From IMG/VR virus record IMGVR_UViG_3300031993_000007: 64,000 nucleotides of DNA, one strand, 5' to 3'. Within the stretch, counting starts at the first letter, position 1. Each line of letters begins with the position of its first letter. The DNA comes from a virus (lineage: Duplodnaviria; Caudoviricetes). The notes beneath the pieces were generated by a model that saw only the letters and a list, made by a program, of their open reading frames with translations, did not search any database and was not told where the DNA came from. Below, piece by piece: positions 34,303 to 57,877 of the stretch. Position numbers and translations under genes: made by a program.

Positions 34303-35730
34303 TTAGGATCCGATAATCTCCTTGGAGATATCGGAAACGCACTTCAGTGTATCATGTTCTAATGTATCTTCGGCGAAGTCTTCTCCAGTATTTTCAGTGT
34401 AGTTTGTAGGGTCAACCATAATATCATTCACAAGACTGTTAGCTACAAAGGTAAAAGCATCATTTTCGCATTCTACATCTTCAGTGAACTTCTCAAGCAA
34501 TTCTCTAGTCTTGTCAATACATTCCAAGAACGGAACCAAGGCTTTCTTGAGCTCGATAAGGTCTGTAATGCAGTCCATAGAGATTCTGGTTCTAGTAGTC
34601 TTCATCATTTCTGTTCTATCGGTAAACCCGACTTCGACATACAATTCTTGATTTCCACCATAGCCAGGACTACCGAACTTAGCATAGCCTTTACCACCTT
34701 CAGGCATCCTATAATGAAAGTCGAAATTCTTATCTGTCTTTTCCATACAGAAATTCTTAACACAGTCCATTATTGCCGGAAGGCAAGTGTTAGAGCCATC
34801 AACAATACGCTTAGTTAGCTTGCTCTTATCATCCTTAGGATAATCTGGAATCTGAGCTTGCATATATCCCTTGAGCAGAATCTTTAAGACAGTCTGTCTT
34901 GCGAAATTAGGATTGGCCTCGTATTCCTCCCTGCTGAACAAGATATAGCCGTTATTCAAATACTTGAATACTTTGAACTCGCTTCGATGGAAAATCAGAG
35001 CATACATCCAAGACAGCATGTTATAACTTGTAACTTTAAATGGAGGAATGAAATAAGCAAAACCATCATTCTTCTTGAGTTCTTCGCGGATCTTTTCAGC
35101 ATCCATAATCTTCGGGGAGACAACCGCTCGAATCTTAGCTTTAAAAGTTAGATGAACTCCAACACTTCCGAAGTTCGGATATCCCGATACAGTGCTAGGA
35201 ATAAGCCCAGAGTGATTCTCTCTGACAAGCTCGTATGCTGTAACTTTGGTTGCGACCTTATCTCCGAATAAGGGAATATTAAAGGAGAACGGAAACCTAA
35301 AAACATTCTTGAAGAGTTCACCTAAGTTATTGACAAGTAAAGTAAGCAAAGAATCAGGATGACTGGGCAAGTAAAAATCTGGAAGGAAAATGTCCAGATT
35401 AATATCAAGACCATCAGTAAAGACCTTCATAGCTTCAGGAGGATAATTCAAACCGTCATTCTCGACGGGGGCATTACCGAGAAAGACATTCTTGAAAAAT
35501 CCGTCTAAATAGAAGAAACTGTTTTGCTTTTCATCTAGAAGTGCAATCATTCCATTCTTAAAATCTTCGACGATATTAGAGGATGGAACAAACTTATTCA
35601 GGTCTTCAGCCGTTTCAATTTTTGTGTTTTCAAAGAAATTGATTACCTCTTGTTTGACAGAAGCATACTTAGTAGGAGTAAGAGTTTTGTCAGCAAGATT
35701 AACAATGGTGGTATACAATGCAGGGATCAT
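34303..35730 (-). CDS. large hypothetical protein with C-terminal DP module (start revised to MIPALY)
   Basis: TATATTA at 35764-35770 and AAGGA SD before ATG 35730; DIMVDPTNY ... KEIIGS*. Confidence 0.8.
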   Translation of the reverse strand: MIPALYTTIVNLADKTLTPTKYASVKQEVINFFENTKIETAEDLNKFVPSSNIVEDFKNGMIALLDEKQNSFFYLDGFFKNVFLGNAPVENDGLNYPPEAMKVFTDGLDINLDIFLPDFYLPSHPDSLLTLLVNNLGELFKNVFRFPFSFNIPLFGDKVATKVTAYELVRENHSGLIPSTVSGYPNFGSVGVHLTFKAKIRAVVSPKIMDAEKIREELKKNDGFAYFIPPFKVTSYNMLSWMYALIFHRSEFKVFKYLNNGYILFSREEYEANPNFARQTVLKILLKGYMQAQIPDYPKDDKSKLTKRIVDGSNTCLPAIMDCVKNFCMEKTDKNFDFHYRMPEGGKGYAKFGSPGYGGNQELYVEVGFTDRTEMMKTTRTRISMDCITDLIELKKALVPFLECIDKTRELLEKFTEDVECENDAFTFVANSLVNDIMVDPTNYTENTGEDFAEDTLEHDTLKCVSDISKEIIGS

Positions 35731-35797
35731 AGAAATTCCTTTTAGATTGTGATCATCAAAAAATAATATAGGACAGACTTTCATCTGTCCTATAAAT

Positions 35798-37024
35798 TTA
35801 CTCAATCTTTTTCAAGAAGTCATCGAGGTTCAAACTCTTAGACTTGATCTTGGATTCGTGGAAGTTCTTCAAGCTGGCATTGAGCAAGCCAGATCCGATT
35901 TTCATTAGCATAAAGCCAATTCGAGGAGTGTCCGACGGTATCATCCGGTAGTACATCTCTCCGATACACTTGTTGCAAATATGCTTTCCGGTGCAGAACA
36001 TCGGGCTACGAATCTTTACCACCTTTCCAGCTAGAGCTTTGATGTTTTCTTCGGTAAGGAGATATTCCTTTCCAGCAAACTCAGCATAGCGAAGATGGTA
36101 TTTGTCCTTTGCGTCTGGGCCGATCTTTACCATCAGTCCGTATTTAGTCTTGCAATCTGTGCCATGTTTGTCAAGACGCAGATGTTGGAAGGCCATGTTG
36201 AACTTCTTCACCACGTAGCCGCCCATAGCGGTATCGATACCACGAGAACAAGCCGATCCAATACCATTGTCTGCGTAGATAGCAATTTCAGACTTCTTGA
36301 TACCTTCCTGAAGAGAAGAATCGGCAAATCTAAATTTAGTGTTGTCCTTACTTTCATTCACCAAGCCACGCATGGCCGAGGTAACGCCGACCACATCTTT
36401 AGCAGATCCGCTAGCCATGTAGTCATAAGCAGGCTTGTCTTTGATTTCATCGACAAACTTGGACTTCACTTCGTCATCGATCTTATTAAGAACGGCAACA
36501 TCAACATTCTTTACGGCTTCGGCATTCTCCTGAAGCAGTCTCTTCTTCAAGGCATTCACAGAGGGAATTTCCTTGTAGATATCGTTGCTAAGGCCAGGAG
36601 ATACAAAGCTGGTAATTCCATAAGTAAACCACGTTTCACGATCAATAAAGTCTGTGTAGTCCAGCGAAGAAATCTTTTCTTCAAGCAGGGCAGACGACAG
36701 AACGCTATTGATCTTGCCGATAGTTTTCTTCGTCCAAGGCTCATTGATAAATGAGAAGAGCGAAGTATACTTAGCATTTCCAAGAAGAAACAGATTTGCT
36801 ACGTAACGACCGGCAGTGGTGAGGATGCTTCCAGTTACCTTCGGAATTACAGAAGCCGTTTCGTCTGAAGACCTAAGAGTAAATTCACCGTTGAACGGAA
36901 TCTTTTGCTTTCCTTCGACAAAGGCGAAATTGGCAAGGAGCCATTCCTTAGTGACTTCAGAGTGCTTCAAAGCTAGCAAAGTCCTGATGTTGTCTTCTGT
37001 GAGTTGAGGTCTTTGATTAGCCAT
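35798..37024 (-). CDS. multisubunit phage RNA polymerase beta' C-terminal subunit (probably virion RNAP)
   Basis: TTAGR, bridge helix RGIDTAMGGYVVKK, Zn site DC.T...RSPMFC....IC.KC.G, trigger-loop-like LNASLKNFH; lies in a late structural operon. Confidence 0.9.
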   Translation of the reverse strand: MANQRPQLTEDNIRTLLALKHSEVTKEWLLANFAFVEGKQKIPFNGEFTLRSSDETASVIPKVTGSILTTAGRYVANLFLLGNAKYTSLFSFINEPWTKKTIGKINSVLSSALLEEKISSLDYTDFIDRETWFTYGITSFVSPGLSNDIYKEIPSVNALKKRLLQENAEAVKNVDVAVLNKIDDEVKSKFVDEIKDKPAYDYMASGSAKDVVGVTSAMRGLVNESKDNTKFRFADSSLQEGIKKSEIAIYADNGIGSACSRGIDTAMGGYVVKKFNMAFQHLRLDKHGTDCKTKYGLMVKIGPDAKDKYHLRYAEFAGKEYLLTEENIKALAGKVVKIRSPMFCTGKHICNKCIGEMYYRMIPSDTPRIGFMLMKIGSGLLNASLKNFHESKIKSKSLNLDDFLKKIE

Positions 37025-37033
37025 AACCTCTCC

Positions 37034-38953: not shown

Positions 38954-38990
38954 TAATTTCCCTTACCTCTCAGGGTAAGGGAAATTATTT
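38954..38990. terminator. bidirectional terminator
   Basis: AATTTCCCTTACC/GGTAAGGGAAATT between convergent genes. Confidence 0.8.
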
Positions 38991-41746
38991 TACGCATGGA
39001 GAATGTACGCAAAGATTTCTTCTTTAGGAGCAAAGCTCTCCCATTTCCAAATAGCCGGACGGGTTTCTAGCTCTTCGTCAGTATCGAATTCCCACATGCC
39101 AAAGGAGTTACTGATTATGCCATAACGATCTGGTCTGTAAATGATCTGTACATACATTTCCATTCCGACCATTATGTCATGCACTGGCAGATAGTCCTCG
39201 CTGGTTCCATCCAATACAACAGGAAGGTCGATAGGATTCATCTGGCTGCTTTCGGGCTGAACCTCTGACAGATAGCCCGACGAGCCTTCTGGATTGTACG
39301 GAGCGGTTTCTCTGTCGGCAGACAATCCATAGAAGGAATCGCTAAGGATCATATGCTGTGGAAGTTTACTAAGATGATCGAATAATCCTATAAAGCCTTC
39401 GCCGCTTCCATCTGCTTTCAGTTTAGTACCGGACACCTGAAGCTGAACAGTATAGCTAATGAATTTCTCAACAAGCATACTTGCAAATTCAGCAAGGTAG
39501 CCCTTTGCGTATGTATCAAAGGATACTGCGCCGGGTTCTAGGCCTCCGTCTTCCAAGAAGGCCAGGATTTCGTTAGCTAGATATGAGAATACGCTTCTAG
39601 CTCGGCCTGTACCTTCGGCAATAGACTCTTCGATTATGCGGAACAGAGTAGGAGCACGACCCTTAAGGACATCTGCCACTGATTCGGCTCCGAAGTAGAT
39701 CGAAGACGGAAGGGTATTAGACTTTAAGAATACGTCTTCATAAATCCCACGAAGAATCTTGTACTCTACGAATTCGGTAAATCCGGCTTCACGGCTATAA
39801 GTATCATACGACTGGTCATCCCAGACTACCTTGCCATGCAACGGATATGGAACTTCGTTTCTAAGTCTATCCTCAAATACCTTTTCGGTTACAGTCTTAG
39901 AAGAGTTTTCCGGAGCTTCAAGCTGGAAGCCCGATGCGATGGCATCACCTACGAATACACTCTGATTATTCTCGGTCTCGACAAGCTTTCCAGAGATAGC
40001 ATCTTGCTGTTCAGAGACAAAGAAGAATAGCTTTTTAAGCTCACGATTGATCCTTATGATAGAGGTCATCATCGCAGACAGCGATTCTGGGCCTGATACA
40101 GTATTAAGAAGCTCTAGAGTATCAGAGATTTCTTTCCAAAGAGTACGTCCATCGGCAGACGTCAGCTTAGAGAAGTATACAGCTTTATAGTTTTCCGGAA
40201 TCTTGAGAGCATCAATACTCGTAATAAATGACAAGACATGCCAAGCGGTATTGTGCTCTCCACCAATAATATTAAAGATTGACGGCTGTGTCTTCCAGTT
40301 CGGGGACATATCCTCGGTCGTCATATCGCTAATGGCTGTTTCCAAATAGTACAATGCCATTAAGGCATAGACCAGAGGAGTGGAGCCTAAGTGCAATTCC
40401 GGAAAAGACGGGATGCTAACAGCCGACGGGCTTATATAGTGCAACAGCGAGAACAAGAGAATCGCACCGTCATTCTGCTCTTCCATGTTGATATCATTAG
40501 AGATACCAATGTACTTAGACGGAAGAACAACCATGCCGTCGCCGAATTCTGCTCTTATCTTTTCAATAACTTCAGATTCAGGGCAGTTTTTCCAATACGG
40601 ATCTGCTCCAGTCACGTCAGCAAAGCTTTGCTTATTGATTTCCGGGTGAGCTACAATGTATTCCAAAGGATTAGCAACATCGAATGGAATTTCTACAAAG
40701 AATAGCTCCTTGTTTCCGGTACCATAATCTCCGTCTTCGCTAGGATTGGATCCAAGGCACATCAGATTCGGATCGCCGTAGACCATGTACAGCTTATAAG
40801 CGTCAACCAGCTCTCGACCAAAGATGTCCTGAATAACAATTTTCAGAGTTTGGGAAGTACTCTTGGTGCGGACTAGCTCACGAATATTCTTAATCACACG
40901 AAGCTGATAAGGCTCTGGCAGGTCATCCAGAAAGTTGATACCGAAGCTATAAAGAGCGTTACGGATGTCGTACTGGTCATAAAGGGCAATGTTGTAAATC
41001 TTTTCTAGCTCAGAATCCAGATAAGAATAGATCGTCATGACAACGATCATCCAGTTCACAAAGGTCGTATAGTTTGGATCCCAGCGCATGGCACGGTTTT
41101 CCATAGCGGCTGTGAACAGGTTTCTATTCTCATTGTACAGCTTTATGAATTTGGTCTTGTCCAAGTACTTGAATGAGATCTTCTTTAGCTGTCTCTTGTC
41201 ATCACCGTCTAGGATGTAGTTTCCATTCGAATCAGTCTCGTATTCGGTATCAGAATAATAGAAGTCCTCCGGATCATAGTAAAGAATGCCGTGGTCAGGA
41301 GTTTGCCTAGCGATATTTGGAAGAACACCGTAGTTGCAGAACAGCAAACGATAATAAGAATTTGCTTCAAAGACGTTACCTATGAAGGGAGCATCTACCA
41401 ATTCTGCATTTTGCATTGGAGTAGCCCTGCGAACCTCTTCAAGGCGTCTCATGTTACTGCCAATATACAGCGAATTCTGAAGATAGATCTGTTGGAAGAA
41501 TTCTACACCATTCGGAATGATATTGTAATCTTGAAGCTGAGGGTTAGGAAACCCTTTCTTGCCAATGCTATCTATATACGGAAGAGTGCCTTCGCAAGCG
41601 CTAATAAAATAAGATCCCCAAAGGATACTCGTAGTAGACTCATGGGCATCAGCCTGGTCTGTATCTTTAAAAACGAAGGTCTTGGCGAATCGTAAAATTT
41701 CTTTTATGGTTGCCGCCGCTCGTTCGTCAATTATAGAATAATCCAT
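38990..41746 (-). CDS. large virion structural protein, probable baseplate wedge (start revised to MDYSII)
   Basis: ~918 aa; late motif at 41768-41779; ..SFG.....LP..YQ...IKNI..L...KST...L..V...IFG segment resembles baseplate wedge proteins. Confidence 0.6.
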   Translation of the reverse strand: MDYSIIDERAAATIKEILRFAKTFVFKDTDQADAHESTTSILWGSYFISACEGTLPYIDSIGKKGFPNPQLQDYNIIPNGVEFFQQIYLQNSLYIGSNMRRLEEVRRATPMQNAELVDAPFIGNVFEANSYYRLLFCNYGVLPNIARQTPDHGILYYDPEDFYYSDTEYETDSNGNYILDGDDKRQLKKISFKYLDKTKFIKLYNENRNLFTAAMENRAMRWDPNYTTFVNWMIVVMTIYSYLDSELEKIYNIALYDQYDIRNALYSFGINFLDDLPEPYQLRVIKNIRELVRTKSTSQTLKIVIQDIFGRELVDAYKLYMVYGDPNLMCLGSNPSEDGDYGTGNKELFFVEIPFDVANPLEYIVAHPEINKQSFADVTGADPYWKNCPESEVIEKIRAEFGDGMVVLPSKYIGISNDINMEEQNDGAILLFSLLHYISPSAVSIPSFPELHLGSTPLVYALMALYYLETAISDMTTEDMSPNWKTQPSIFNIIGGEHNTAWHVLSFITSIDALKIPENYKAVYFSKLTSADGRTLWKEISDTLELLNTVSGPESLSAMMTSIIRINRELKKLFFFVSEQQDAISGKLVETENNQSVFVGDAIASGFQLEAPENSSKTVTEKVFEDRLRNEVPYPLHGKVVWDDQSYDTYSREAGFTEFVEYKILRGIYEDVFLKSNTLPSSIYFGAESVADVLKGRAPTLFRIIEESIAEGTGRARSVFSYLANEILAFLEDGGLEPGAVSFDTYAKGYLAEFASMLVEKFISYTVQLQVSGTKLKADGSGEGFIGLFDHLSKLPQHMILSDSFYGLSADRETAPYNPEGSSGYLSEVQPESSQMNPIDLPVVLDGTSEDYLPVHDIMVGMEMYVQIIYRPDRYGIISNSFGMWEFDTDEELETRPAIWKWESFAPKEEIFAYILHA

Positions 41747-41767
41747 ATAGTTCCTTGGAAATTTGTT

Positions 41768-41793
41768 CAATAGAAAGTTGGAGGTATATTAAA
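41768..41793. promoter_or_regulatory. back-to-back late promoter (-, AACTTTCTATTG 41768-41779) and early promoter (+, TATATTA 41785-41791)
   Basis: motif matches in a ~70-nt divergent intergenic region. Confidence 0.75.
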
Positions 41794-41815: not shown

Positions 41816-42190
41816 ATGAAAATAGAAATCAGCGAATACGATAATGGCCTTAAGGCTATTGTTATTGACGGCATCACTGTTACTGAAGAACTTGGAACAT
41901 TCTTTAACCTAGCTCCGGGCTATGACAAATCTGTTCCGGCTGGATGGGCGATTTTGGATCCGGAAGTAAGCCAACTGTCTTTCAAGGATGACGAAGTATT
42001 CTTTACAGGAATCTCTCTGAAGCATATCATGTCTAATCCCAATAGCAGAGCTGTATTGCTAGTTAGCTGCGGCCCCAGAGACCGTGATACCAATACGAAC
42101 ATAGCCAGAGTTGTTAAGGTCATCACCGATAAGAAAGGCAAGCTAGAATTCAATCCGGAAACTGGAGAGCTTTCTGATGCTAAATATTAA
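41816..42190 (+). CDS. hypothetical protein
   Basis: AAGGAG SD. Confidence 0.8.
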   Translation: MKIEISEYDNGLKAIVIDGITVTEELGTFFNLAPGYDKSVPAGWAILDPEVSQLSFKDDEVFFTGISLKHIMSNPNSRAVLLVSCGPRDRDTNTNIARVVKVITDKKGKLEFNPETGELSDAKY

Positions 42191-42848
42191 AAAGGAAATG
42201 GGCGTTCTTATCGAAGCTTGTGGTAATGATAACATTCTAGAGAATTGCCCATTCCAAAGAGAATCCAAAGAAGCGATGATAGACAAAGAGATGGATATCA
42301 TCCGAAGCAATCCATACGCTGCTGGACGATGGCTAGAAGCGTGCCGTGAGTCTCCGGAAGCTACAAAGATTCTCAAGAAGTATCTCAAGGCCGCTGGAGT
42401 TACCGAACATGGCATCTGGATTATAAAGAACTACAACGATCATAGCAAGACTTTGTCTAGTGCAGTATTTGCTTTCTCGGATCTGCTGATAAACACCTTT
42501 AAGACCTATCGAGCTCTCGGAGTTGATCAGAAAGAGTTAACTGACGACGAAAGGTTCGATGCTCTTGACGACTTTAACGTATTCGCACCAGATGCAGAAA
42601 CTTGTGATCGAATTCTGAAGAATCTTAGCGAATATATCAAGGATATGGTTGAGGATTATCTAGATGGAAGCGATAAAAGCATCAGCGACACTGGAGATCT
42701 TGGAGTTCTGGCATTAGCCATCGATGTGGCCAATGATCCTTTAGAATGGCTGAATATCGCAGCTCTATATGATTCTAATAAATTCGGAGAGAACACTGCC
42801 CCGATTTTGGAACTCAACGAAGTCATTGGAGGATTTCTAAATGGCTAG
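42177..42848 (+). CDS. DP-module family protein
   Basis: DVANDPLEWLNI ... GGFLNG*. Confidence 0.8.
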   Translation: MLNIKKEMGVLIEACGNDNILENCPFQRESKEAMIDKEMDIIRSNPYAAGRWLEACRESPEATKILKKYLKAAGVTEHGIWIIKNYNDHSKTLSSAVFAFSDLLINTFKTYRALGVDQKELTDDERFDALDDFNVFAPDAETCDRILKNLSEYIKDMVEDYLDGSDKSISDTGDLGVLALAIDVANDPLEWLNIAALYDSNKFGENTAPILELNEVIGGFLNG

Positions 42849-43509
42849 ACTGAAAAAGACTTGGATAGAAAAGAATGCGGAATATCTCAAGAATAACATT
42901 ATCAAATGCTTCTTAAGGATTCCGGAAGTCCTTTCCAAAGAATCTTTGAATAATTTTCTGGACACTCAATTTGGACTGATGTGCAAAGATCTGTTTTCAG
43001 CTTTAAGGTTCTTATCACCGTTTATGGTAGATTATCGTGATGATAACGACAATTACGAATTTAAGCTTAGTAACTTTGAAGAAAAGCTCTTAAAACGATT
43101 TCTGATCGAACAGCACCATCTGACTAAAGCAGAATCTAAAATAGCTGTAGATAGATCTTCGGGTATGGTCAATATTCGTATTACCATTGTTGATATCATC
43201 GGAGCTCTTCTCTGGGAAGAAGATCTGAAAGATTTTAGGAATAGCTTTAAGATTTTGCTTCCTAAAGAAATAGCTGTGCCATTCTTCAAGGCAGCTCCAA
43301 AGAGCGAGTATCTGGATTTCTACCTAGAAGAAGCTACTCTAGCTTCGTATATACTAGTAAAGGAATTTCCTCTTAATCCGATCGAGTGGCTATCATTCTT
43401 TGAATCTGCTAAGAGCACAATTCTTAGATCTATAAGTATGGATGAAAGCTCTTTTAATGATCTTACCAACTTGATCAAATCCTGTTTTACAACCAAGGAG
43501 AAAAAGTAA
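42841..43509 (+). CDS. DP-module family protein
   Basis: EFPLNPIEWLSFF, 44 aa from the C-terminus. Confidence 0.8.
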   Translation: MARLKKTWIEKNAEYLKNNIIKCFLRIPEVLSKESLNNFLDTQFGLMCKDLFSALRFLSPFMVDYRDDNDNYEFKLSNFEEKLLKRFLIEQHHLTKAESKIAVDRSSGMVNIRITIVDIIGALLWEEDLKDFRNSFKILLPKEIAVPFFKAAPKSEYLDFYLEEATLASYILVKEFPLNPIEWLSFFESAKSTILRSISMDESSFNDLTNLIKSCFTTKEKK

Positions 43510-44072
43510 TGAGCGAAGAATTAACAAACATTAATGACATTATTAGTGAACTGGAGAAGTCCGGCACTAAGGTCATTGGAGTTGGCCCAGGCCAAGGATT
43601 GACCATTGGTCTCTTTGGAAGTGAGGCCGAAGAAAGAAGCAGAGCTGATGTTCTTGCAGAACTGAAGCCAAAGGCAGTTAAAGAACTTGCAGAGGCCTTT
43701 AAGGAAATGCTTAACCTTTGGCCTAACACTGTCTTCGAGAATATGGACATCCCGATGGAAATTGTGTTCCAGAATGACTGGGCGCTTGGAGCTATTGGCT
43801 GTCCTAGGCTTCCTGAAGATCGTCGCAAAGACGAAGCTGCTTACACAGCATTCTACAAAGCACTGGCAGAGACCTTTGCGATCTGCCCGACCAACATGGA
43901 AACTGACGAAATGGAAAAGGCTACAGAGTTGCTGATCGACAATATGTTTGATTTGGATCCTACTATTGGTATCAACCTTGGTACTTCTATCGGATTCATC
44001 AATCGTGATAAGCATCCTAGTAAACCGTTCTGTCCGTCACTTATAGAATATGCTAGACGCTATCTGGGGTAA
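43509..44072 (+). CDS. DP-module family protein
   Basis: NMFDLDPTIGINL ... RRYLG*. Confidence 0.75.
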   Translation: MSEELTNINDIISELEKSGTKVIGVGPGQGLTIGLFGSEAEERSRADVLAELKPKAVKELAEAFKEMLNLWPNTVFENMDIPMEIVFQNDWALGAIGCPRLPEDRRKDEAAYTAFYKALAETFAICPTNMETDEMEKATELLIDNMFDLDPTIGINLGTSIGFINRDKHPSKPFCPSLIEYARRYLG

Positions 44073-44074
44073 CT

Positions 44075-44260
44075 ATGATGAACAGTACTATAGCGGCGCT
44101 TGAAGCCGCCTTTCCACTTGAAAAGATCTTGTATTGCAGAGGATGCGGATTACGTCTTAACGATCTTGGTCTAAAAAAGATACCATCTAATTGTCCGGTT
44201 TGCGGAATCTTAACGGAGAATAACCCAAATGATGACAGCACTGCACAAAGCGATGGATAA
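44075..44260 (+). CDS. small zinc-ribbon protein
   Basis: CRGC...CPVC. Confidence 0.65.
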   Translation: MMNSTIAALEAAFPLEKILYCRGCGLRLNDLGLKKIPSNCPVCGILTENNPNDDSTAQSDG

Positions 44261-44744
44261 GATCATAGATTCTGAAGGCACCACGATTGGAGATTTCTGG
44301 GGATTGCTTACCTTCCTTGAGATTGAGCCGCCCTTGAAACTTCTCAATCAAAAGGGAGAGTACTCAGATCGGTTCAGAAAGGATTTGGAAGACCATTATC
44401 CTATTCAGTTGGATGTGGCCGTCAGATCCAGACTTAGGTGCTATCCCTTGGAAGAGCTTTCGGAATTTATCCGACATCTTCAGATGATTGTAAAGGATGC
44501 AGAACAGATTAAGGATACTTTGGAAAGGGTATATGGAATCCGAGAAGATAATTTCGACACGTACGGATTTGCCTCGGTGATGAAGCCTGTTATCCATCAA
44601 AAATTGGATGACATTCTTGCAGATCCTATAGCCTTCTCTAATAAATTCAGTGAAAAAGATGCACTTTCTCTTGAAAGTTTTAAATTCGGGAAGAGCGTTT
44701 TAAAAGCCATCATAGAAACTAAAAAAGAATTGATCAATGGATAA
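44229..44744 (+). CDS. DP-module family protein
   Basis: DILADPIAFSNKF ... KELING*. Confidence 0.8.
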   Translation: MMTALHKAMDKIIDSEGTTIGDFWGLLTFLEIEPPLKLLNQKGEYSDRFRKDLEDHYPIQLDVAVRSRLRCYPLEELSEFIRHLQMIVKDAEQIKDTLERVYGIREDNFDTYGFASVMKPVIHQKLDDILADPIAFSNKFSEKDALSLESFKFGKSVLKAIIETKKELING

Positions 44745-46446: not shown

Positions 46447-47982
46447 TTATTCCTCAGGGTTGATAAATGCGCTAGCTATATCGTGTATAGAACGATAGAA
46501 GATGAAGTCTTGTTCTTCTATGTCGTTCATTTGTCCGGCAGTAGGTTTGGCATTATTCAGCCATTCCAAAGCGTTATTGTACATAGTGATCGGATCCAAC
46601 TTGATTTCGTTGAAGAGTACCTTAAAGAATTCCATTATATTCTTTCCGATATCATTGGTCTCTCTGTACATATTTTCAAGAGCACTGTATACCTCTTCCT
46701 TAGACTGAACTTTGTCAAGAAGGGCTTTGCAAGACGCTATCCATTCTTGGGCTTCTGCTCCAAAGACTTGGAATCTTTGGAACGTAGGCCTTCTGGTTTG
46801 GTTCTCCATAGCCTTTTCAATTAAAGACGAAGCATTTATTATCGCAGACATAGCCATTAAAAATACTGGATAAGCCGGAAGCAACCTAGATGAGGCCCAC
46901 GCCAAGAATTCTTTGTTGCTGCGGAAGCTCCCAATCATTTCTGAAGCGCAGAGATAGACAGTATGGTCTATGTTGTAAGCTAAATCAGCTTTCAACTCCC
47001 AGCATCCGTTAACTACAGAAGGACTGGAATTTTCAAACACTACAGAGAGCTTTCGAACCGCAGAAAGATTATCACCTTCTTCAAGTCTGTGTAGTACAAG
47101 TTTCTTAGGCCAGCACAAAGCCGCAAGTACCGCATCAATGACATCGCCTTTGGAGCTCATGTCATAGTAGTCGAATAAGACATTGCTGCCATCCTTTTTG
47201 GCATCCTTGTCAATATTGTCAATTACTGAAGTGATAGTATCGCCGAAGTTTTCTCCATAAATACGAAGATAACGTCCAGCTATATTGTCAGATCTTCGAT
47301 TAACGAACAGATGAATAGGATTTACTAGCGATGACAAATTCTGAACATCTTGCATCAAACAAACGGTGCTGTACGCCCATTCATGCTCGTACGCCATCTG
47401 CCTTCCCATAATAACATAGATATCTTCAAGTTTCCTTGCACCTTCGCTATATGCTTCCTGAAGCAAAGCATTCATTCCTTGTTCAATCGTTTTGTGGAGC
47501 AATGGAAGTTCTTCGTTATAGACTTCCAGAAAAGCTTCACGGAACTTTTCCGGAGTTCCGGCCGATTTAAGCTTATTCCAATGCTTGCTATTGTTTCTGA
47601 TTTCGGCAGATCCAATGAACATGCAAGTTTCAATCCAGGTTTGTCTATAAAGTCTAGCAGATACGCTGTCTTCGCCCAACAACAGACGACGATATAGGCC
47701 GTCACGACGGATCATACCGTTGTTATACTCGTAATACTCCGTTCCCTTAGGGCGCCACTTAAATTGCGGATGGCCAGCCATTGCCTGAACAGCGGCGTCT
47801 GCATGAATAGCGGCATTCTGTTTATTGCATTCATTTTTCAAAGTTTCTCGAAGCTGATCAATTTCTTCTCGATTCCAGATATGGTTAGAAAAATCTATCT
47901 CTCCTTTCTCGATAAGATCAAGCAGAATTTCTGTATTACTCGGCTTTTTGACCTTTAAGTCTTGTATTCTTGGTGTGCTCAT
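46447..47982 (-). CDS. ~511-aa protein with C-terminal DP module (start revised to MSTPRI)
   Basis: GGAG SD after promoter 48010-48016; EIKLDPITMYNNAL. Confidence 0.8.
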   Translation of the reverse strand: MSTPRIQDLKVKKPSNTEILLDLIEKGEIDFSNHIWNREEIDQLRETLKNECNKQNAAIHADAAVQAMAGHPQFKWRPKGTEYYEYNNGMIRRDGLYRRLLLGEDSVSARLYRQTWIETCMFIGSAEIRNNSKHWNKLKSAGTPEKFREAFLEVYNEELPLLHKTIEQGMNALLQEAYSEGARKLEDIYVIMGRQMAYEHEWAYSTVCLMQDVQNLSSLVNPIHLFVNRRSDNIAGRYLRIYGENFGDTITSVIDNIDKDAKKDGSNVLFDYYDMSSKGDVIDAVLAALCWPKKLVLHRLEEGDNLSAVRKLSVVFENSSPSVVNGCWELKADLAYNIDHTVYLCASEMIGSFRSNKEFLAWASSRLLPAYPVFLMAMSAIINASSLIEKAMENQTRRPTFQRFQVFGAEAQEWIASCKALLDKVQSKEEVYSALENMYRETNDIGKNIMEFFKVLFNEIKLDPITMYNNALEWLNNAKPTAGQMNDIEEQDFIFYRSIHDIASAFINPEE

Positions 47983-48009: not shown

Positions 48010-48050
48010 TAATATAGAACCGTTATCCATCTCTGGATAACGGTTCTATA
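48010..48050 (-). promoter_or_regulatory. portal terminator overlapping an early promoter (48010-48016)
   Basis: TATAGAACCGTTATCCA/TGGATAACGGTTCTATA stem. Confidence 0.75.
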
Positions 48051-52303: not shown

Positions 52304-53119
52304 TTAATATACTTTCGTCTTATACTGAAGACAGACTTTGGAAGTGAAGCCGCTGTTCTTGTCAATGCTGATGAGATATACTCTGTAATACTCGATGTTA
52401 TGGATGAAATCTTTGTAATAGATTATATCACCATCAGCATTGCGGGCTATCTCTTCATCCCTAACAAGTCTCTTGGTTTCAGCAGAGCTCTCGATGTATC
52501 CTTTAACCCTGAGCGTTCTACCTTTACTGTCATTCTCGTAGTATATAGAACAAAGATCGTAGTTGTCTTTGTATGTCTCTACTTCTTTCACCAAGAATCC
52601 AGATTCGTCATAGGTAAACTTGTGTGTTACTTCATTTCCAAAGACTCTGGCTTCTATCTTCTGATTCTTTTCGTTATAAGTATTTTCCTCGCAGATTATA
52701 GGAGCTCCAGCCTTGTCATAATTAGGCTTGAAGCATCGAGTCATGTTTCCGTGGGCATCGTACTCATAAAGAATTTCAATTCCTTCAGAATCTTTAGTCC
52801 TTATAAGCTTTCCGAACAGAGGATTTCCTCGTTCGTTATTGTAAGACTTTGAAAGAGTAAAGCCATTCTTGTGACGTTCGGCGGCTACATTCCCGTAGTT
52901 GTCGAAGACATAATGGACCTCAGAGGTTTTTCCGTCAATTTCAGTCTTTTCAAAGACTTTCTTGCCTAGATTATCAAATATTTCTTCGCTGTAGAAGACG
53001 AAATCAGCGTAATACCCAAGCTTTCCCCTGATAGAAATCATGAAGAGAAAGGTAATGGTTACTACGATAGATATCAGTCCTCCAATGCAGAGTAAAATTT
53101 GTAAAGGGCTTTCTGGCAT
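52304..53119 (-). CDS. membrane-anchored YD/RHS-like repeat protein
   Basis: N-terminal TM; repeats YVFDNYGN, YNNERGN, YEYDAHGN, YNEKNQ, FTYDESG, YENDSKGR, RNADGD. Confidence 0.7.
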   Translation of the reverse strand: MPESPLQILLCIGGLISIVVTITFLFMISIRGKLGYYADFVFYSEEIFDNLGKKVFEKTEIDGKTSEVHYVFDNYGNVAAERHKNGFTLSKSYNNERGNPLFGKLIRTKDSEGIEILYEYDAHGNMTRCFKPNYDKAGAPIICEENTYNEKNQKIEARVFGNEVTHKFTYDESGFLVKEVETYKDNYDLCSIYYENDSKGRTLRVKGYIESSAETKRLVRDEEIARNADGDIIYYKDFIHNIEYYRVYLISIDKNSGFTSKVCLQYKTKVY

Positions 53120-53134: not shown

Positions 53135-53662
53135 TTAAAGGGTTGAGGTTTGTAATGAACTGTTTACGAATTCTAAGAATCCCTTAGCTGTCACTGGACT
53201 GAAATTCGATCTAGGAACTCCTCTCAAATCCAACCGAAGCTTATTAACGGAAGGATCAGACAGAATCAAATTTAAATTGCCGATTACCCGTAAGGGGTCT
53301 GTAGAGGACTTATCAACAAGATTTAATACAAGATTCTGAAGGATATTTTTAGATTTAAGAATATAACGAACTCCATCATCAAATAACAATTTACAAGGAT
53401 ATCTTTCTACAAATTTTTCTATATCATTGATTGCAGGATTATTAAAGATTTTGAAATCAAGTAATTCTTCAAAATCGTGTATCAAGTTATAACAAAAGAC
53501 TGGAGGACAATTAATCAATGAAGATAAAGACTTATCTTCTTCAGGTACTATTACTCTATAATAGTATTTACTCAAAGTCTGATAAAGGCTTATGAATAGT
53601 GTAGCTATGAATTCATAAGCAGTTATGATTTTCATCCATTCCAAAGTACTAAATTTTTCCAT
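53135..53662 (-). CDS. DP-module family protein
   Basis: KSSTDPLRVIGNL. Confidence 0.75.
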   Translation of the reverse strand: MEKFSTLEWMKIITAYEFIATLFISLYQTLSKYYYRVIVPEEDKSLSSLINCPPVFCYNLIHDFEELLDFKIFNNPAINDIEKFVERYPCKLLFDDGVRYILKSKNILQNLVLNLVDKSSTDPLRVIGNLNLILSDPSVNKLRLDLRGVPRSNFSPVTAKGFLEFVNSSLQTSTL

Positions 53663-54237
53663 TATGACTCCATTGATTTGGTTATATCCTCTTCTAACAA
53701 TGCTGTGTATGTCTTAGATGATGGGCTATATTTCCAAGTATCATCGTCGTCTTTGATAGATCTAAGATGGGTCAGAAAGGATAGAGGATCGATCATAATT
53801 CTTTCTTCAACATCCAGGATCCATTTCTGCCAAACCATTATGAACCCGGAGTACTGCCTAAAAATCTTCTTAGACTCTTCTTCTAGTGAAGAATCATCAG
53901 CATTGATAGCACAATTGCAAAGCTTCTTGAATTCAGGCCAAGTTGTCTTCTCAGAAAACCCAACAAAGGCTTTTGCTATCTTTCCAGATACGGTGAATCC
54001 GACCAGATTTTCTGCACGGCTTATCCAGTTTTTTGTGGATTCTTCCATTTTGATATAAGTAAAGGTAGCATACATCGACTTAATCTGAAAGATATCTCTG
54101 CAAATACTTCTGATCAACAAAAAGATTTGAGTCCTTCTTGTCTCTCTAATTTCTTCAGGCTTCATATGGGTATAAATCACCTCGCTCACAGCTCGTATAT
54201 AATCAGCACGACTCCGTTCACTCAGATTTTTTAGCAT
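53662..54237 (-). CDS. DP-module family protein (start revised to MLKNLS)
   Basis: GGAG SD; RIMIDPLSFLTHL. Confidence 0.8.
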   Translation of the reverse strand: MLKNLSERSRADYIRAVSEVIYTHMKPEEIRETRRTQIFLLIRSICRDIFQIKSMYATFTYIKMEESTKNWISRAENLVGFTVSGKIAKAFVGFSEKTTWPEFKKLCNCAINADDSSLEEESKKIFRQYSGFIMVWQKWILDVEERIMIDPLSFLTHLRSIKDDDDTWKYSPSSKTYTALLEEDITKSMES

Positions 54238-54844
54238 CTTTGGCTCCATTGATGGCATTCCTGGCAAGATCCATGAAGAACTTAATTCCATAGCTTCGGT
54301 CATCAGCTTTGACAAGAATATTGTCCAGCGCTTCAAGATCTGTAAGCATCTTGAAAGGATCGACCTTAAGATTAAAAGCGAAATTTTCTGCCCAAGCTTT
54401 CCATATCGGAAGAGCATCACTAAAGAAATTGTTGTCTATCATAATTTTCGCTTTCTCGTAACTTCCGGCATCATTGCACAGTATAGCGGCTAGCTTCAAA
54501 GTTCCAAAGTAATACCTTACAGACAAACGTGTCTTTTCATTTTTCCAGTCTTCCTTAGTGACATTACACACAATGTATGCAAGCTGTTCTGTAATAGCTT
54601 GGCGTTCCTTCAGCCTTTTGTACACGTCGCTACCATTCTTAACTCTAGGAGTAGGAGGTTCCCACGTAATATCCCAAGACGATTGGCCATACTTTCTTGC
54701 TAAAATCATCAAAGTGTAAAGAAACCTTTGTTCTCTCAACTGAGTATCTAAGGGAAACAATTCATGAACAATTGCGTTTTCAGGCAGTTCTGCGATTCTC
54801 TTCTTAGGTATGCCTAGTTCTTCCGGATTGTTTTCGTTAAACAT
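54218..54844 (-). CDS. DP-module family protein
   Basis: NLKVDPFKMLTDL; first gene after early promoter 54870-54876. Confidence 0.8.
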   Translation of the reverse strand: MFNENNPEELGIPKKRIAELPENAIVHELFPLDTQLREQRFLYTLMILARKYGQSSWDITWEPPTPRVKNGSDVYKRLKERQAITEQLAYIVCNVTKEDWKNEKTRLSVRYYFGTLKLAAILCNDAGSYEKAKIMIDNNFFSDALPIWKAWAENFAFNLKVDPFKMLTDLEALDNILVKADDRSYGIKFFMDLARNAINGAKDAKKSE

Positions 54845-54922
54845 AATTCTCCTTGGTTGTTGCCCTATTTAATATACAATAAAAAAGAAGCCGCCTCTTT
54901 CGAGACGACTCCTTGCTTGATG

Positions 54923-55831: not shown

Positions 55832-56131
55832 TTAGGGGTTGATATCTTTCCAAGGCTTGAGTCTCCACTCTAGGAGCTTAGAGGCCGAGACGCTTCTGTG
55901 CAGAATATAGAACAAGCGGATCGCTAAAGACAGACAAAGGATTACAGCCGCTATTTGAGTGATCCATTTTAGAGAGTCCTCTATTCTGTCAGTTACGAAT
56001 GCGGCTATTGTAGCTACAAAGTCTATTGCAAATACAAGTGCAGGGCTTTTGTTGAAGCCCTGCTCTGCTACTTTGATTAAGTCCTTGTTGCTGTAACCTT
56101 TGAATTTCTTTTCAAGTTTACAGGTTTCCAT
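55832..56131 (-). CDS. membrane protein (start revised to METCK)
   Basis: AAGGAG SD; 2 TM. Confidence 0.7.
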   Translation of the reverse strand: METCKLEKKFKGYSNKDLIKVAEQGFNKSPALVFAIDFVATIAAFVTDRIEDSLKWITQIAAVILCLSLAIRLFYILHRSVSASKLLEWRLKPWKDINP

Positions 56132-56795
56132 TTGTTGATGGCTCCTTTGGACTTGATCCAGAGTATAAGAATTTGATCCACGCCGTAAAGGCCGGAATTT
56201 CTCCGTCGTCCAATTCGTTGTCATTGAAATCGGCGATTTTGATTTGCTTCTTTAGCTCATCAAGGAGATTTTCCGCTTCCATCGGATCGTGTTTCTGAAG
56301 AGCTTCTTTGCAGATATTTACAAGATTCTCGTAGTCAATTTCTTCTATTAATGTAGATTGGAAGCCGTTAAGACTTGCATTATAGGCTTCGACTGGAGTG
56401 ATCTTTATCTGCTCGTCAAACAGATTCTTTCCGAAGAACGGAGTAATTATTTGGTCATTGAAAATTTTTCCTTCCTTAAATTCTCCTTCTGGATCTATGA
56501 CTATATCCACTGTAGGTTTATTTAGAGGCGAATCTTTAGGGATTTCTTCTTCGTACCCATAGACCTCGTCACAGCAGTCTTCTTTAGCACCAGCTTTTAC
56601 TGCTACAAAGATCATTTCAAGAAGTTCCTTAGCTGCATTGCTAAGGATTTCCTCTTTAGAATTTAGACTACCTGACCTTGGATCTGAGCCATCTCCACCC
56701 ATCTCAACCTTGTTTCCTTTCAAATGGTAATTACCATAGGTCAGAAGTTCAAAGATGGTGTGGCCCGGATTAGTAACATATACCTTCTCTTTCAT
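56118..56795 (-). CDS. acidic hypothetical protein
   Basis: GAGG SD after promoter 56820. Confidence 0.8.
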   Translation of the reverse strand: MKEKVYVTNPGHTIFELLTYGNYHLKGNKVEMGGDGSDPRSGSLNSKEEILSNAAKELLEMIFVAVKAGAKEDCCDEVYGYEEEIPKDSPLNKPTVDIVIDPEGEFKEGKIFNDQIITPFFGKNLFDEQIKITPVEAYNASLNGFQSTLIEEIDYENLVNICKEALQKHDPMEAENLLDELKKQIKIADFNDNELDDGEIPAFTAWIKFLYSGSSPKEPSTNGNL

Positions 56796-56849: not shown

Positions 56850-57085
56850 TAGATAAATATCTCAACATCGTCTCTGTACTTATCCCTAATGTCTTTAGGT
56901 AGATCCATATTTTCCTCAATCCAAGGCCCTGGAACATAGGAATCCTGATCCTCAAACTTGACCGTTCCTTCTGCCAAGGCTTTTTTGATTGGTTCAGAAT
57001 TTCCTTCCAGAATCTTTCTAATTTCAGATTCTGGAAGATCTACTTCGCATCCTAGACGAAATCGAAGTTTCATTAATACCTCCAA
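56849..57085 (-). CDS. hypothetical protein
   Basis: GGAGG SD favours the start at MKLRF. Confidence 0.7.
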   Translation of the reverse strand: MEVLMKLRFRLGCEVDLPESEIRKILEGNSEPIKKALAEGTVKFEDQDSYVPGPWIEENMDLPKDIRDKYRDDVEIFI

Positions 57086-57114
57086 AGTTAGTGATAAAAT
57101 TGATCTTCATCAGA

Positions 57115-57423
57115 CTATCCTCCCTTGAACAAGCGTTCTACATCCTTGCAACATTCGGGATAGTCCCGATGGCCGAGTTTCTTCATTTCATCGGCTAAAT
57201 CCCTCATAGCCAGTAAGAATTCTTTGCCGTATTTCTTTCGGCACTTGACGAAGATAAGTCTGTATCCATTGATTTGGCTCTTGAACTCCCTTCCAAACTT
57301 TACAGGAATTCCGTGATGCGCAAAGATAGGTTCAGACAGATAATCATCAATGTCTATGATCGCAAAGTGGTAGAAAATGAATGCCCCTTTGTTGATCCTG
57401 AAATAGTTACGCTGTCTTTTCAT
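57115..57423 (-). CDS. hypothetical basic protein (start revised to MKRQR)
   Basis: GGAGG SD. Confidence 0.75.
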   Translation of the reverse strand: MKRQRNYFRINKGAFIFYHFAIIDIDDYLSEPIFAHHGIPVKFGREFKSQINGYRLIFVKCRKKYGKEFLLAMRDLADEMKKLGHRDYPECCKDVERLFKGG

Positions 57424-57877
57424 GTGATTCCTCCGGGTCAATTTTGATCTTGATACTGCCGTCAGAGATCCCAACAAGGATTCTTCCGACAGGCCCATGA
57501 GAATGTTTCTTCATATTGAACCAAGGATATTCTGTTTTATCTGCAATCTCTATAAATTCTATAGGATTACAAATTATGTCGTTATAAAGCTTTCTGATAA
57601 TTGTATCGGAATAGCATGTATTTAAGTTTTCACGAATGGCAATCAGCGGCATTGCTTCGAGATACTTAAAGATATAATCTTGGGTACTGTAGTCCTCCGG
57701 ATGTTTATCCATTGTGCTAATCCACTTCAAAGCGTCTCTAACAAGCCCACTTGCAAAATCCCAAAGTTTTTCGGATGGAGTTAGCTGCTTCATACTCCAA
57801 TTGGTATATTTAGCCTTGAAGATATTTGGGTATGTATCTTTGAATCTTTGCTTTTGTTTATTAAGTCTTTTAGGCAT
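57407..57877 (-). CDS. DP-module family protein (start revised to MPKRL)
   Basis: GAGG SD, promoter 57900-57906; DIICNPIEFIEI. Confidence 0.75.
   Translation of the reverse strand: MPKRLNKQKQRFKDTYPNIFKAKYTNWSMKQLTPSEKLWDFASGLVRDALKWISTMDKHPEDYSTQDYIFKYLEAMPLIAIRENLNTCYSDTIIRKLYNDIICNPIEFIEIADKTEYPWFNMKKHSHGPVGRILVGISDGSIKIKIDPEESHEKTA

Follow-up and report, generated by a model that had tools for sequence, protein, structure and literature searches.

A small-gene array of this uncultured phage and most of the 14 dispersed proteins noted for an Asp-Pro or Asn-Pro dipeptide ([DN]P) near their C-termini are best read as one lineage-specific, fast-diverging early family with a shared C-terminal domain, which expanded through duplication and at least one fusion (we put the probability of this reading at about 0.6). 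We analyzed a stretch of 64,000 nt (the window) together with the complete 259-kb record. The shared unit would be a single all-alpha domain, roughly 90-130 residues long, with which the protein always closes. Its core would comprise two amphipathic helices joined by the [DN]P junction, then a variable-length loop and a terminal helix mostly ending phi-phi-Q or phi-phi-x-G. At the junction (phi-[DN]-P-x-x-[YFW]; another Pro often follows five residues on), the D/N would cap and the P begin the next helix. Most members would be single-domain proteins of 110-225 aa with N-terminal halves diverged past recognition. The domain would also end some proteins of ~400-540 aa: one firm case (46447; genes are named here by their lower coordinate), with no more than three weaker candidates, namely 45261, 34303 and a protein of 541 aa outside the window.

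Sixteen small genes make up the firm family: the 13 of the array, 10454, and a pair immediately beyond the start of the window. Those with sequence in the window are:

Positions 23912-29729, minus strand: array of 13 small tandem genes, 109-198 aa, the family core; self-consistent HMM, E 1e-17 to 1e-37.
Positions 10454-10867, minus strand: firm dispersed member, 137 aa, ending LIQ; array-only HMM, E 1.5e-4.
Positions 1-131, minus strand: 5' end of another firm member, a 114-aa gene with its module just beyond the window; array-only HMM.

Beyond the window start, the array-only HMM matched genome coordinates 244870-245214 (E 4.3e-5), 245211-245570 (3.3e-6) and 245567-246028 (0.0029; 1.3e-4 with a 26-sequence HMM). 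Two further family-like genes come after the 114-aa gene at the window start.

The array members align full-length, and the alignment gives the layout amphipathic helix, [DN]P, second helix, variable loop, terminal helix. On either flank of the DP, the periodicity of hydrophobic residues is highest at 80-110 degrees, and it is from this periodicity alone that we infer a helical fold. By eye, the array gene at 25013-25603 encodes two additional hydrophobic N-terminal segments. Conservation is loose apart from a few positions (mean column identity 16-17%). The extreme C-terminus is kept: 11 of the 13 array proteins end in the tripeptide phi-phi-[QESC], two of them with an extra Gly after it, and a phi-phi-Q end is found in 9/16 firm members vs 4/263 other genes. 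A strict tail (phi-phi-[QE], or phi-phi-x-G near the stop) is present in 14/16 firm members and 13/263 others, including 42177 and 44229; 9895, 45261 and 46447 match a relaxed form only, and 57407, 53662, 13152 and 53135 match neither. The codons at DP and LIQ vary among family genes, indicating that conservation acts at the protein level.

The original prediction described a [DN]P module at a fixed distance from the C-terminus of unrelated proteins. The distances themselves were accurate. All 11 values listed from the D/N to the last residue (36, 37, 44, 38, 40, 34, 49, 54, 42, 47 and 53) were exact on recount, [DN]P was at the claimed place in 14 of 14 dispersed proteins, and the lengths of 34303 (475 aa), 45261 (394 aa) and 46447 (511 aa) were as given. 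The distance is not fixed, ranging from 37 to 81 residues, a twofold spread, in the ten firm members that match the strict pattern. Its apparent constancy would arise because the last helices of the domain close the chain.

Bare [DN]P is barely enriched in the C-terminal region (55 vs 39), so the dipeptide, even with its distance, is weak evidence by itself. For a strict motif, [LIVMFCA][DN]P..[FYWM], there were 50 occurrences in 296 called proteins, from the gene calls of a crude custom caller, compared to 15.8 ± 3.9 in 200 shuffles, and 16 compared to 1.9 ± 1.4 (200 shuffles) at 30-62 residues from the C-terminus. With the 16 firm genes left out, nine strict matches lay 33-58 residues from the C-terminus vs 3.2 expected from the density elsewhere in the same proteins (p = 0.01), and a looser pattern gave 19 vs 8.4 in the same interval (p = 0.002). 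Seven of these nine strict matches fall inside 34303-57931.

We compared dispersed candidates to the family with several profiles, each with its own controls. The family HMM was made from 26 clean sequences and used to search 279 genes plus 558 decoys (first decoy at E = 0.17). A core HMM of 33 columns was iterated (decoy maximum 3.3 bits; 3.4 at iteration 3). For hhalign, the controls were 173 internal segments (highest score 16.4). Motif-matched controls were 55 natural internal segments carrying the motif. The candidates had been chosen by eye for the same motif to which the profiles give weight, a bias that the motif-matched controls lessen, not abolish.

Of the 14 dispersed proteins said to carry the module, 11 exceeded all controls by one test or more (10454, 46447, 53135, 53662, 57407, 13152, 9895, 54218, 44229, 45261 and 34303), and 42177, 42841 and 43509 were above controls in none. 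The refutation test put forward with the original prediction did not refute it: the array-only HMM ranked 10 of 13 testable candidates 16th or better among 283 non-array genes, with E < 0.01 only for 10454 and 53662 among the dispersed candidates. With the clean family HMM, seven genes came ahead of the first decoy. The core HMM placed 11 non-family genes genome-wide above the decoy ceiling, nine in the first pass and two on iteration, and all nine first-pass matches stop 11-74 residues short of the C-terminus, also in proteins of 394, 527 and 541 aa. Scored against 10 array members, 18 candidate segments exceeded 60 random C-termini (MWU 5e-10) and the 55 motif-matched segments (MWU 1.2e-8). 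BLASTP among the dispersed proteins joined a single pair, 53662 and 9895 (E 0.03). The candidates assessed individually were:

Positions 46447-47982, minus strand: 511-aa protein, family domain in the last ~130 residues; family HMM E 2.8e-4.
Positions 53135-53662, minus strand: 175-aa protein; family HMM E 0.0029, aa 2-140 on profile positions 14-115.
Positions 57407-57877, minus strand: 156-aa protein, helix-NP-helix core with a different tail; core HMM 8.2 bits.
Positions 44229-44744, plus strand: 171-aa protein, terminal helix ending ELING; hhalign 22.8 over 47 columns.
Positions 45261-46445, minus strand: 394-aa protein, NP ... ELIEGE; hhalign 20.1 over 44 columns, template positions 94-150.
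Positions 34303-35730, minus strand: 475-aa protein, VDP ... EIIGS; hhalign 17.0 vs control maximum 16.4.
Positions 13152-13634, minus strand: 160-aa protein, DP 77 residues from the end; core HMM 3.4 vs 3.3.
Positions 42177-44072, plus strand: three genes (42177-42848, 42841-43509, 43509-44072) with [DN]P at the claimed distance; motif only.

Among larger proteins, 46447 is the firm case and the one in which the domain is best supported. Residues 396-498 (ORF numbering) align with positions 23-116 of the 141 in the family HMM, and the other scores were also above controls (core HMM, 7.3 bits vs decoy maximum 3.3; hhalign, 22.5 vs control maximum 16.4). On iteration, 46447 joined the firm family. 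The N-terminal ~390 residues gave no match to anything. Because 53135 matches the profile along nearly its entire length, it reads as a full-length diverged paralog; one of the 55 motif-matched controls matched or beat it, and it failed with the core HMM (1.2 bits). For 57407, hhalign gave 24.2 and the family HMM E 0.034.

Assignments of 45261, 34303, 13152 and 44229 are marginal, just above controls. The 44229 match spans the DP region to the terminal helix (template positions 90-149), with 0/55 motif-matched controls as high and a core HMM score above the ceiling only at iteration 3 (3.7 vs 3.4). The end of 45261 is probably a C-terminal module, with moderate support (core HMM 3.6 vs decoy maximum 3.3; 4/55 motif-matched controls as high), and that of 34303 is a possible, marginal one (0/55 as high; core HMM 2.8 bits, under the decoys). 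We searched for relatives of these two proteins and found none. In 13152, the motif DPKTRIPVLINDL is similar to DPLATIPVLLTDW of 23912, the family HMM E value (0.14) is barely before the first decoy, and 0/55 motif-matched controls were as high. Neither the core HMM, hhalign nor the family HMM placed 42177, 42841 or 43509 above controls, and 11/55, 7/55 and 9/55 motif-matched controls, respectively, were as high. These three genes are in one operon with 44229. By the same three methods, neither the proteins of the NAD operon nor the virion protein of 926 aa scored above controls.

Three of the dispersed proteins form a subfamily of their own, subfamily B (W-x-x-W ... I-D-P):

Positions 53662-54237, minus strand: 191-aa protein; core HMM 13.9 bits.
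Positions 54218-54844, minus strand: 208-aa protein; leave-one-out E 6.1e-9, aa 112-183.
Positions 9895-10446, minus strand: 183-aa protein; leave-one-out E 1.4e-6.

They are mutually paralogous over 40-75 residues or more and have an N-terminal P-E-E motif in common. Further support for 53662 came from the family HMM (E 0.0047), hhalign (26.7) and leave-one-out (E 6.3e-5), and 9895 rose above the core-HMM decoy ceiling only once the model was iterated (8.6 bits, iteration 2). The leave-one-out profile for 54218 was built from 9895, 53662 and two orthologs; the sole tie of 54218 to the array family is by way of 9895 and 53662, and it failed with the core HMM (-0.9 bits) and hhalign (13.3). Links between the subfamilies are weak: the profile of these three proteins matched the array profile with an hhalign E value of 0.0065 and a probability of 5.8%.

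Within ortholog pairs, the core and the tail are the more conserved parts. In 12 pairs, identity was 0.63-0.70 at -20 to +9 around the DP and 0.45-0.56 in most other 10-residue bins. The last 10 residues were above the overall identity of the pair in 9/12, and the tails were more conserved than the loop that precedes them. The 10454 ortholog P0021 has kept IDP and SLIQ, and the 9895 ortholog P0034 (56% identity) has no differences across EDEGLFDKSIPVWKKWVEDI, directly upstream of the DP. When 1.84 billion representatives were searched with a profile, 21 matched, 20 of which are 99-196-aa proteins of the phage itself or its close kin. A like C-terminal tripeptide is present in 10/10 relatives, two with one extra Gly. 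There was no match to the family in Pfam, PHROGs or PDB sequences, and a scan of the whole of Pfam-A with 20 window or genome proteins and 31 family members gave 0 families at cut-off. Orthologs of the C-termini of the large proteins were searched for and none was found. The family looks lineage-specific, with relatives only in close kin of the phage. A virion protein is shared with phiR1-37, AR9 and PBS1 (~24-25% identity), and within the same profile search AR9 has no reported equivalent of the family.

We found the module in units headed by an early-type promoter core, TATATTA:

Positions 30022-30028, minus strand: TATATTA heading the array unit (sequence context).
Positions 10926-10932, 35764-35770, 48010-48016, 54870-54876 and 57900-57906, minus strand: TATATTA heading other module units.
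Positions 41785-41791, plus strand: TATATTA heading a module unit.

There were 26 TATATTA sites in the window vs 11.1 ± 4.0 expected. The extended form TATATTA-N5-[TA]G occurred at 42 sites, 37 of them near gene starts, vs 5 in a reversed-sequence control. Units under this form hold 28/33 module genes vs 113/246 others (Fisher 1.5e-5). The predicted confinement to early-promoter units was borne out with one outlier, the 541-aa protein, which lies outside the window. The AR9 early consensus is AAATATATATTAT-(6N)-G (PMC5312081); a promoter of AR9 type would have an AT-rich core ...TATATTAT with a G at fixed spacing, upstream of early genes. The phage promoters resemble AR9/phiKZ-type early units, which a virion RNA polymerase reads (PMC5312081), in the core TATATTA(T/A) with a G a few bases on, and in often lying after a terminator hairpin and before the SD and ATG; as we count it, the G stands one base nearer to the core than in AR9. 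From these promoters, the module units would be expressed early, presumably by a virion RNA polymerase, and the family would have grown by tandem duplication within them.

The module was originally proposed to be a portable docking or sorting tag: 40-60 C-terminal residues that were moved onto unrelated proteins and are read by a single receptor, protease, chaperone or scaffold, with the free C-terminus (phi-phi-Q or phi-phi-x-G) belonging to the signal. We consider this unlikely. The module is C-terminal every time, also in proteins of 394-541 aa, the N-terminal parts are unrelated by BLASTP, and every unit but one is of early type; the preference for phi-phi-Q, the like ends of all ten relatives and the conserved ortholog tails also suit a tag. 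Part of the prediction held: a conserved C-terminal unit occurs well beyond the array and ends 46447, with its unrelated N-terminal part, and probably also, on weaker grounds, 45261, 34303 and the 541-aa protein; the picture of otherwise unrelated proteins applies only to those of ~400-540 aa. The preference for a tag over whole-gene paralogy did not survive: measurable similarity covers ~100 residues (46447) or the entire protein (53135), rather than a 40-50-residue tag, and 9895, 53662 and 54218 are paralogs. The tandem clustering is as expected from duplication, the DP-to-end distances are spread, and the low column identity is unlike a linear recognition motif. Sorting to a compartment would recall the chimallivirus nucleus, whose cargo selection (Imp1 and related factors) likewise concerns a jumbo phage with its own RNA polymerases and the idea that proteins are sorted selectively. 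In contrast to those phages, no chimallin gene was detected here: the chimallin profile (phrog_4795) gave nothing at E <= 1 in the complete 259-kb record, with the phiKZ gp54 control found at 1.8e-232, and phiKZ gp54 as a single query had no match in the phage. Import into a phage nucleus is unlikely for this reason. Among C-terminal degrons and modifiers, the ssrA tag has LAA as its end and Pup has GGQ or GGE; the resemblance lies in a conserved extreme C-terminus, often a hydrophobic pair and then a last Gln/Glu. Nothing links the phage tail to a protease. A Pup-like modifier was rejected, as the tails (L-I-Q and the like) have no GG before the Q/E and the Pup ligase family PF03136 was absent from the phage (controls matched in 2/14 genomes).

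Somewhat less probable again is coincidence outside the small-gene family, in which unrelated helical proteins share a generic N-cap and were picked up by searching C-terminal regions for the motif. A helix N-capping box with a hydrophobic staple reads phi-[S/T/D/N]-P-x-x-phi, and the phage motif has the same phi, D/N, P and aromatic residue at +3, with helical periodicity on both flanks. It looks like an N-cap between two amphipathic helices, and its conservation fits a generic, structural role, not necessarily recognition. Because this is a common helix start, convergence is possible for the weakest cases. The near-absent enrichment of bare [DN]P, the excess of the strict motif (2-3 times the shuffle expectation) proteome-wide, beyond C-termini too, the three proteins that failed every test, the several marginal ones, and the weak profile-profile link all agree with coincidence. 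An N-capping box alone leaves the preceding helix, the second Pro, phi-phi-Q, the tandem clusters and the profile matches without account, however. The 11 genes above the core-HMM decoy ceiling, the seven ahead of the first family-HMM decoy and the collective advantage over motif-matched natural controls argue against chance, as do the clustering of matches in adjacent genes and early units and the leave-one-out link of 54218 to 9895 and 53662.

For the shared-domain family, our favoured guess has the conserved C-terminal part as the folded core or as an interaction surface that members share, and the variable N-terminal parts as engaging different host targets in takeover. Poxvirus ankyrin-repeat proteins form a multigene family with a C-terminal PRANC/F-box-like domain and variable N-terminal parts. 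As in the phage, there are many diverged copies per genome, often in tandem, the C-terminus is conserved and the N-terminus variable, and the presumed role is host takeover. The two differ in that there is no sequence relation (no Pfam F-box or PRANC model matched at cut-off in the Pfam-A scan), the phage is a bacterial virus, its variable parts are not repeats, and a Skp1-like partner is not known for its family. A docking role for the C-terminal domain is possible. It is a long shot, more speculative than either alternative above, that the domain is a common docking module plugging two dozen N-terminal target-binding parts into one partner, which may be a host protease or chaperone or a phage ubiquitin-like conjugation machinery. 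If this were true, the phage would encode a library of substrate adaptors comparable to the F-box/PRANC proteins, and the partner would recognise, among other features, the strictly kept free C-terminus (phi-phi-Q, or a Gly in or close to the last position).

We translated the 14 dispersed open reading frames reported to carry a [DN]P motif (hereafter DP) near the C-terminus, using the starts implied by the promoter, SD and ATG. Genes are named by their lower coordinate in the window, and coordinates on the full virus record are given as "genome". The three large proteins had the lengths originally given (475, 394 and 511 aa), all 11 distances from the D or N to the last residue (36, 37, 44, 38, 40, 34, 49, 54, 42, 47 and 53) were reproduced, and the plus-strand unit 42177-44744 (genes 42177, 42841, 43509 and 44229) confirmed that the motif is found on both strands. 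The claim that the distance is fixed did not hold. The firm family has 16 members: the 13 tandem small genes of the array (23912..29729, minus strand), 10454, and two genes beyond the window start. Across the 10 of these that match the strict pattern [LIVMFCA][DN]P..[FYWM], the same D/N-to-end distance spans 37-81.

The motif occurs beyond chance when its occurrences are taken collectively. The strict pattern was found 50 times in the 296 called proteins, compared to 15.8 ± 3.9 in shuffles, and 16 times at 30-62 residues from the C-terminus, compared to 1.9 ± 1.4. Because shuffling gives a poor null model when the motif is a generic helix cap, we also compared the interval 33-58 residues from the C-terminus with the rest of the same proteins, leaving out the 16 firm members. 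There were nine strict matches vs 3.2 expected (p = 0.01) and 19 loose matches vs 8.4 expected (p = 0.002), and the bare [DN]P was found only 55 times vs 39 expected. Seven of the nine strict C-terminal matches outside the firm family lie within window 34303-57931.

The motif was defined by aligning the 13 array proteins with three other small paralogs and with ten relatives found in public collections. Upstream of DP is a 14-residue stretch with hydrophobic positions at helix-like spacing. The motif proper is a hydrophobic residue, D or N, and then P (92% of alignment rows). Next are two variable residues and one that is aromatic or hydrophobic; another P stands five positions past the first (68%), and a second amphipathic stretch follows. 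The mean column hydrophobicity has a periodicity peak at 80-110 degrees on the N-terminal side of DP and at 100-110 degrees on its C-terminal side, in agreement with DP being flanked by two putative amphipathic helices. The pattern phi-[STDN]-P-x-x-phi (phi, hydrophobic residue) is a helix N-cap with a hydrophobic staple, and DP is most simply read as the junction between two predicted helices. C-terminal to the second of these are a loop of very variable length and a predicted last helix. The strict tail pattern was fitted by 14 of the 16 firm members, and nine of the 16 end in phi-phi-Q, compared to four of the 263 other genes. Paralogs encode L, I, Q, D and P with different codons, and therefore conservation acts at the protein level. 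A DNA-level signal (RBS or spacer) behind the LIQ tail was rejected because the codons vary and because the tail is kept in members that have no coupled downstream gene. One array member, 25013-25603 (minus strand), has by eye a long hydrophobic N-terminal stretch before the family domain, resembling two membrane-spanning segments, and could represent a membrane-anchored form of the family.

We searched the called genes with an HMM built from the array alone, as proposed with the original prediction; 54218 was absent from its gene set. Outside the array, 10454 (1.5e-4), 53662 (0.0078) and three genes beyond the window start had E-values below 0.01; two of the three are the firm members, and the other scored 0.0029. 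Gene 46447 followed at 0.011, then 9895, 45261, 13152, 57407, 34303 and 44229 at 0.06-0.21, and 53135 at 0.99. Genes 42841 (0.099) and 42177 (2.0) aligned off the DP site, and 43509 was not listed in the results. A cleaned family HMM (26 sequences) was run against 279 genes and 558 reversed or shuffled decoys, the first of which appeared at E 0.17. Before it came 46447 (2.8e-4; aa 396-498 aligned to positions 23-116 of the 141-position profile), genome 245567-246028 (1.3e-4), 53135 (0.0029; aa 2-140), 53662 (0.0047), genome 13552-13917 (0.018), 57407 (0.034) and 13152 (0.14).

A shorter HMM of 33 core columns, for which the best of the 558 decoys set a ceiling of 3.3 bits, placed nine non-family genes above the decoys in the first pass: 53662 (13.9 bits), genome 245567 (13.2), genome 13552 (9.3), 57407 (8.2), 46447 (7.3), genome 13910 (6.8), 45261 (3.6), genome 31316-32941 (3.5) and 13152 (3.4). 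All nine matches end 11-74 residues from the C-terminus. Iteration added 9895 (8.6) and 44229 (3.7). Not above the decoys were 34303 (2.8), 53135 (1.2), 54218 (-0.9) and 42177. The core HMM matches outside the window included three proteins that have their motif 11-18 residues from the end and no Pfam or PHROG match:

Genome 13121-14446: the 121- and 178-aa proteins, core HMM score above the decoys
Genome 31316-32941: the 541-aa protein, core HMM score above the decoys

Past the window start, two larger proteins encoded side by side have phi-phi-Q ends: FMQ in genome 251500-252489 (329 aa) and LLQ in 250556-251494 (312 aa). The former has H-P-A-R-V-P-I-L where 23912 and 13152 have D-P-x-x-x-I-P-V-L. 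These two may be further diverged family members; by hhalign the pair scored only 14.0, under the controls described next.

We used hhalign to compare the last 120 residues of 255 genes with the family profile; 173 internal segments served as the natural controls (maximum score, 16.4). Scores over the controls were obtained for genome 245567 (26.9), 53662 (26.7), 57407 (24.2), 44229 (22.8), 46447 (22.5), genome 13910 (22.0), genome 13552 (21.1), 45261 (20.1) and 34303 (17.0). Two non-candidate C-termini also exceeded them: genome 101117-102853, at 19.1, aligned only to the tail part of the profile, and the other, at 16.6, aligned upstream of the DP region. When 95-residue segments were compared with ten array members by Smith-Waterman z-score, the 18 candidates were above 60 random C-termini (Mann-Whitney U, 5e-10) and above 55 internal loose-motif segments (1.2e-8). 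None of these 55 controls scored as high as 34303, 44229, 53662, 13152, 10454, genome 245567 or genome 13552; as many as 11 did for 42177, nine each for 43509, 46447 and 54218, and seven for 42841. Leave-one-out profiles, which included two orthologs, tied 9895 (E 1.4e-6), 53662 (6.3e-5) and 54218 (6.1e-9) together as a subfamily (B), all three of which have P-E-E in the N-terminal part and an invariant W-x-x-W ... D-P. In all, 11 of the 14 dispersed proteins were supported by at least one controlled test (four of them only marginally) and three by none. The observation is real but had been overcounted.

A profile search of 1.84 billion representatives recovered 21 proteins at E ≤ 0.001. Twenty of these are 99-196 aa long, ten being the phage's own proteins and ten from close kin; the remaining match (P0020) is a single 2053-aa protein with six matching stretches. 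Over 12 ortholog pairs, one of them N-terminally truncated, which lowers the value of its N-terminal part, identity was 0.63-0.70 in the 30 residues around DP vs 0.45-0.56 in most other bins, and the last ten residues exceeded the pair's overall identity in 9 of the 12 pairs. The core and the tail are therefore more strongly constrained. The one relative of 46447 (74% identity, on a 1.7-kb contig) stops at query residue 409, before the module. Among viral contigs with genomic context there was no locus for 46447, its 784-aa neighbor or the ortholog P0021, and an alignment of 46447 with the protein P0023 found no related locus in metagenome contigs. When 34303, 45261 and the 541-aa protein were aligned and used as a query, just two of these three inputs came back.

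The association with early-type promoters was upheld. TATATTA occurs 26 times in the window, compared to 11.1 ± 4.0 expected, with 25 sites on the minus strand and one (41785) on the plus strand. Most of the 59 sites genome-wide follow a hairpin and T-run and lie 20-60 bases before an SD and ATG. An extended form, TATATTA-N5-[TA]G, has 42 sites (37 near a gene start) vs five in a reversed-sequence control. The early consensus used by the AR9 virion RNA polymerase is given as AAATATATATTAT-(6N)-G (PMC5312081), which the extended form closely resembles. Of the 33 module-bearing genes, 28 are under the extended form, compared to 113 of the 246 other genes (Fisher, 1.5e-5). The five outside such units are the four genes of the plus-strand unit, whose first gene is preceded by the plain heptamer at a distance of 31 bases, and the 541-aa protein, the sole module candidate without a TATATTA-headed unit. 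By analogy with AR9, we infer that the module-bearing units would be expressed early.

At many sites across the window, such as 10926, 12015, 15488, 20805 and 23589, the promoter comes right after a GC-rich hairpin and T-run with near-identical flanks, and these sites between units look like reused terminator-promoter cassettes. Two minus-strand heptamers are inside coding sequence, at 26930-26936 (last codons of 26904-27500) and 13621-13627 (codons 3-5 of 13152-13634). Neither is likely to be a promoter, because the TG context normally seen downstream or the hairpin upstream is missing. A 271-aa protein (52304-53119, minus strand) is directly behind one TATATTA site and has another (52305-52311) at the other end of its gene. 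It matches the RHS-repeat PF05593 (E 1.2e-7; 32.4 bits vs a cut-off of 22), which is unusual for a small early phage protein.

The original prediction interpreted the module as a portable tag appended to unrelated larger proteins. Three observations argue against this: the 37-81 range of distances, the length of the similarity, and the side-by-side position of members. Similarity can be measured over ~100 residues of 46447, over all of 53135 and of the array proteins, and over 40-75 residues or more inside subfamily B. Adjacent members are found in the array, in 9895/10454, 53135/53662/54218 and 45261/46447, in the three genes beyond the window start, and in genome 13552/13910. Together, these features are the signature of a gene family duplicating in place and diverging fast. 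The prediction was half right, in that there is a conserved C-terminal unit confined to early-type transcription units, but this unit is the domain of a diverging family. What survives of the tag idea is the invariably terminal position of the domain, and that it ends at least one protein, 46447, whose N-terminal part of ~390 residues has no match. The large proteins could also have been fused tandem copies of the domain, a possibility we dropped since no significant second match was seen. A nuclear import signal was rejected because no nuclear shell protein (chimallin) was detected in the phage by a search with a positive control, and a Pup-like modifier because the tails lack GG and the phage has no Pup ligase. 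The domain is most likely a common structural core or an interaction surface with variable N-terminal specificity. That it is a true docking module for one shared partner seems improbable, though worth keeping in view.

No family in the databases searched accounts for the domain: there was no consistent match in Pfam or PHROGs, nothing consistent and nothing below E 0.0049 among PDB sequence profiles, and neither a model nor a usable match for the two of the proteins present in the ESM Atlas. The virus record is 259,448 bp long, has direct terminal repeats and is estimated to be complete; the window corresponds to its bases 181001-245000, read on the minus strand. For a 926-aa protein (38990-41770), the PHROG match is to virion structural proteins (E 3.9e-38), and by tblastn it matched only phiR1-37, AR9, PBS1 and Staphylococcus jumbo phages (20 records), at ~24-26% identity over 25-35% of its length. 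On the basis of these matches, the phage is distantly related to the AR9/phiR1-37 group. None of 50,697 deposited phage records proved closely related by megablast, and Logan/ENA contains a related 254,314-bp contig. Duplication is common in the early region, where BLASTP gave other paralog pairs: 16331-16906 and 12247-12807 (43% identity, E 4e-50), 12825-13151 and 1662-1994 (38%, E 4e-16), and 56118-56795 and genome 99443-100447 (29%, E 9e-5).

Annotation of jumbo-phage early genes is mostly absent. Here, about one-tenth of the called genes (roughly 27-29 of 279) belong to one superfamily, seen solely in this phage lineage. The conserved C-terminal domain offers a bait for finding out whether one partner is common to all members, and the variable N-terminal parts are open to screening for host targets. 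Should the domain be a docking module, the family would parallel, in a phage, the adaptor families of large eukaryotic viruses. Should it be a structural core only, the family would be large but otherwise an ordinary orphan, of use in the annotation of related phages.
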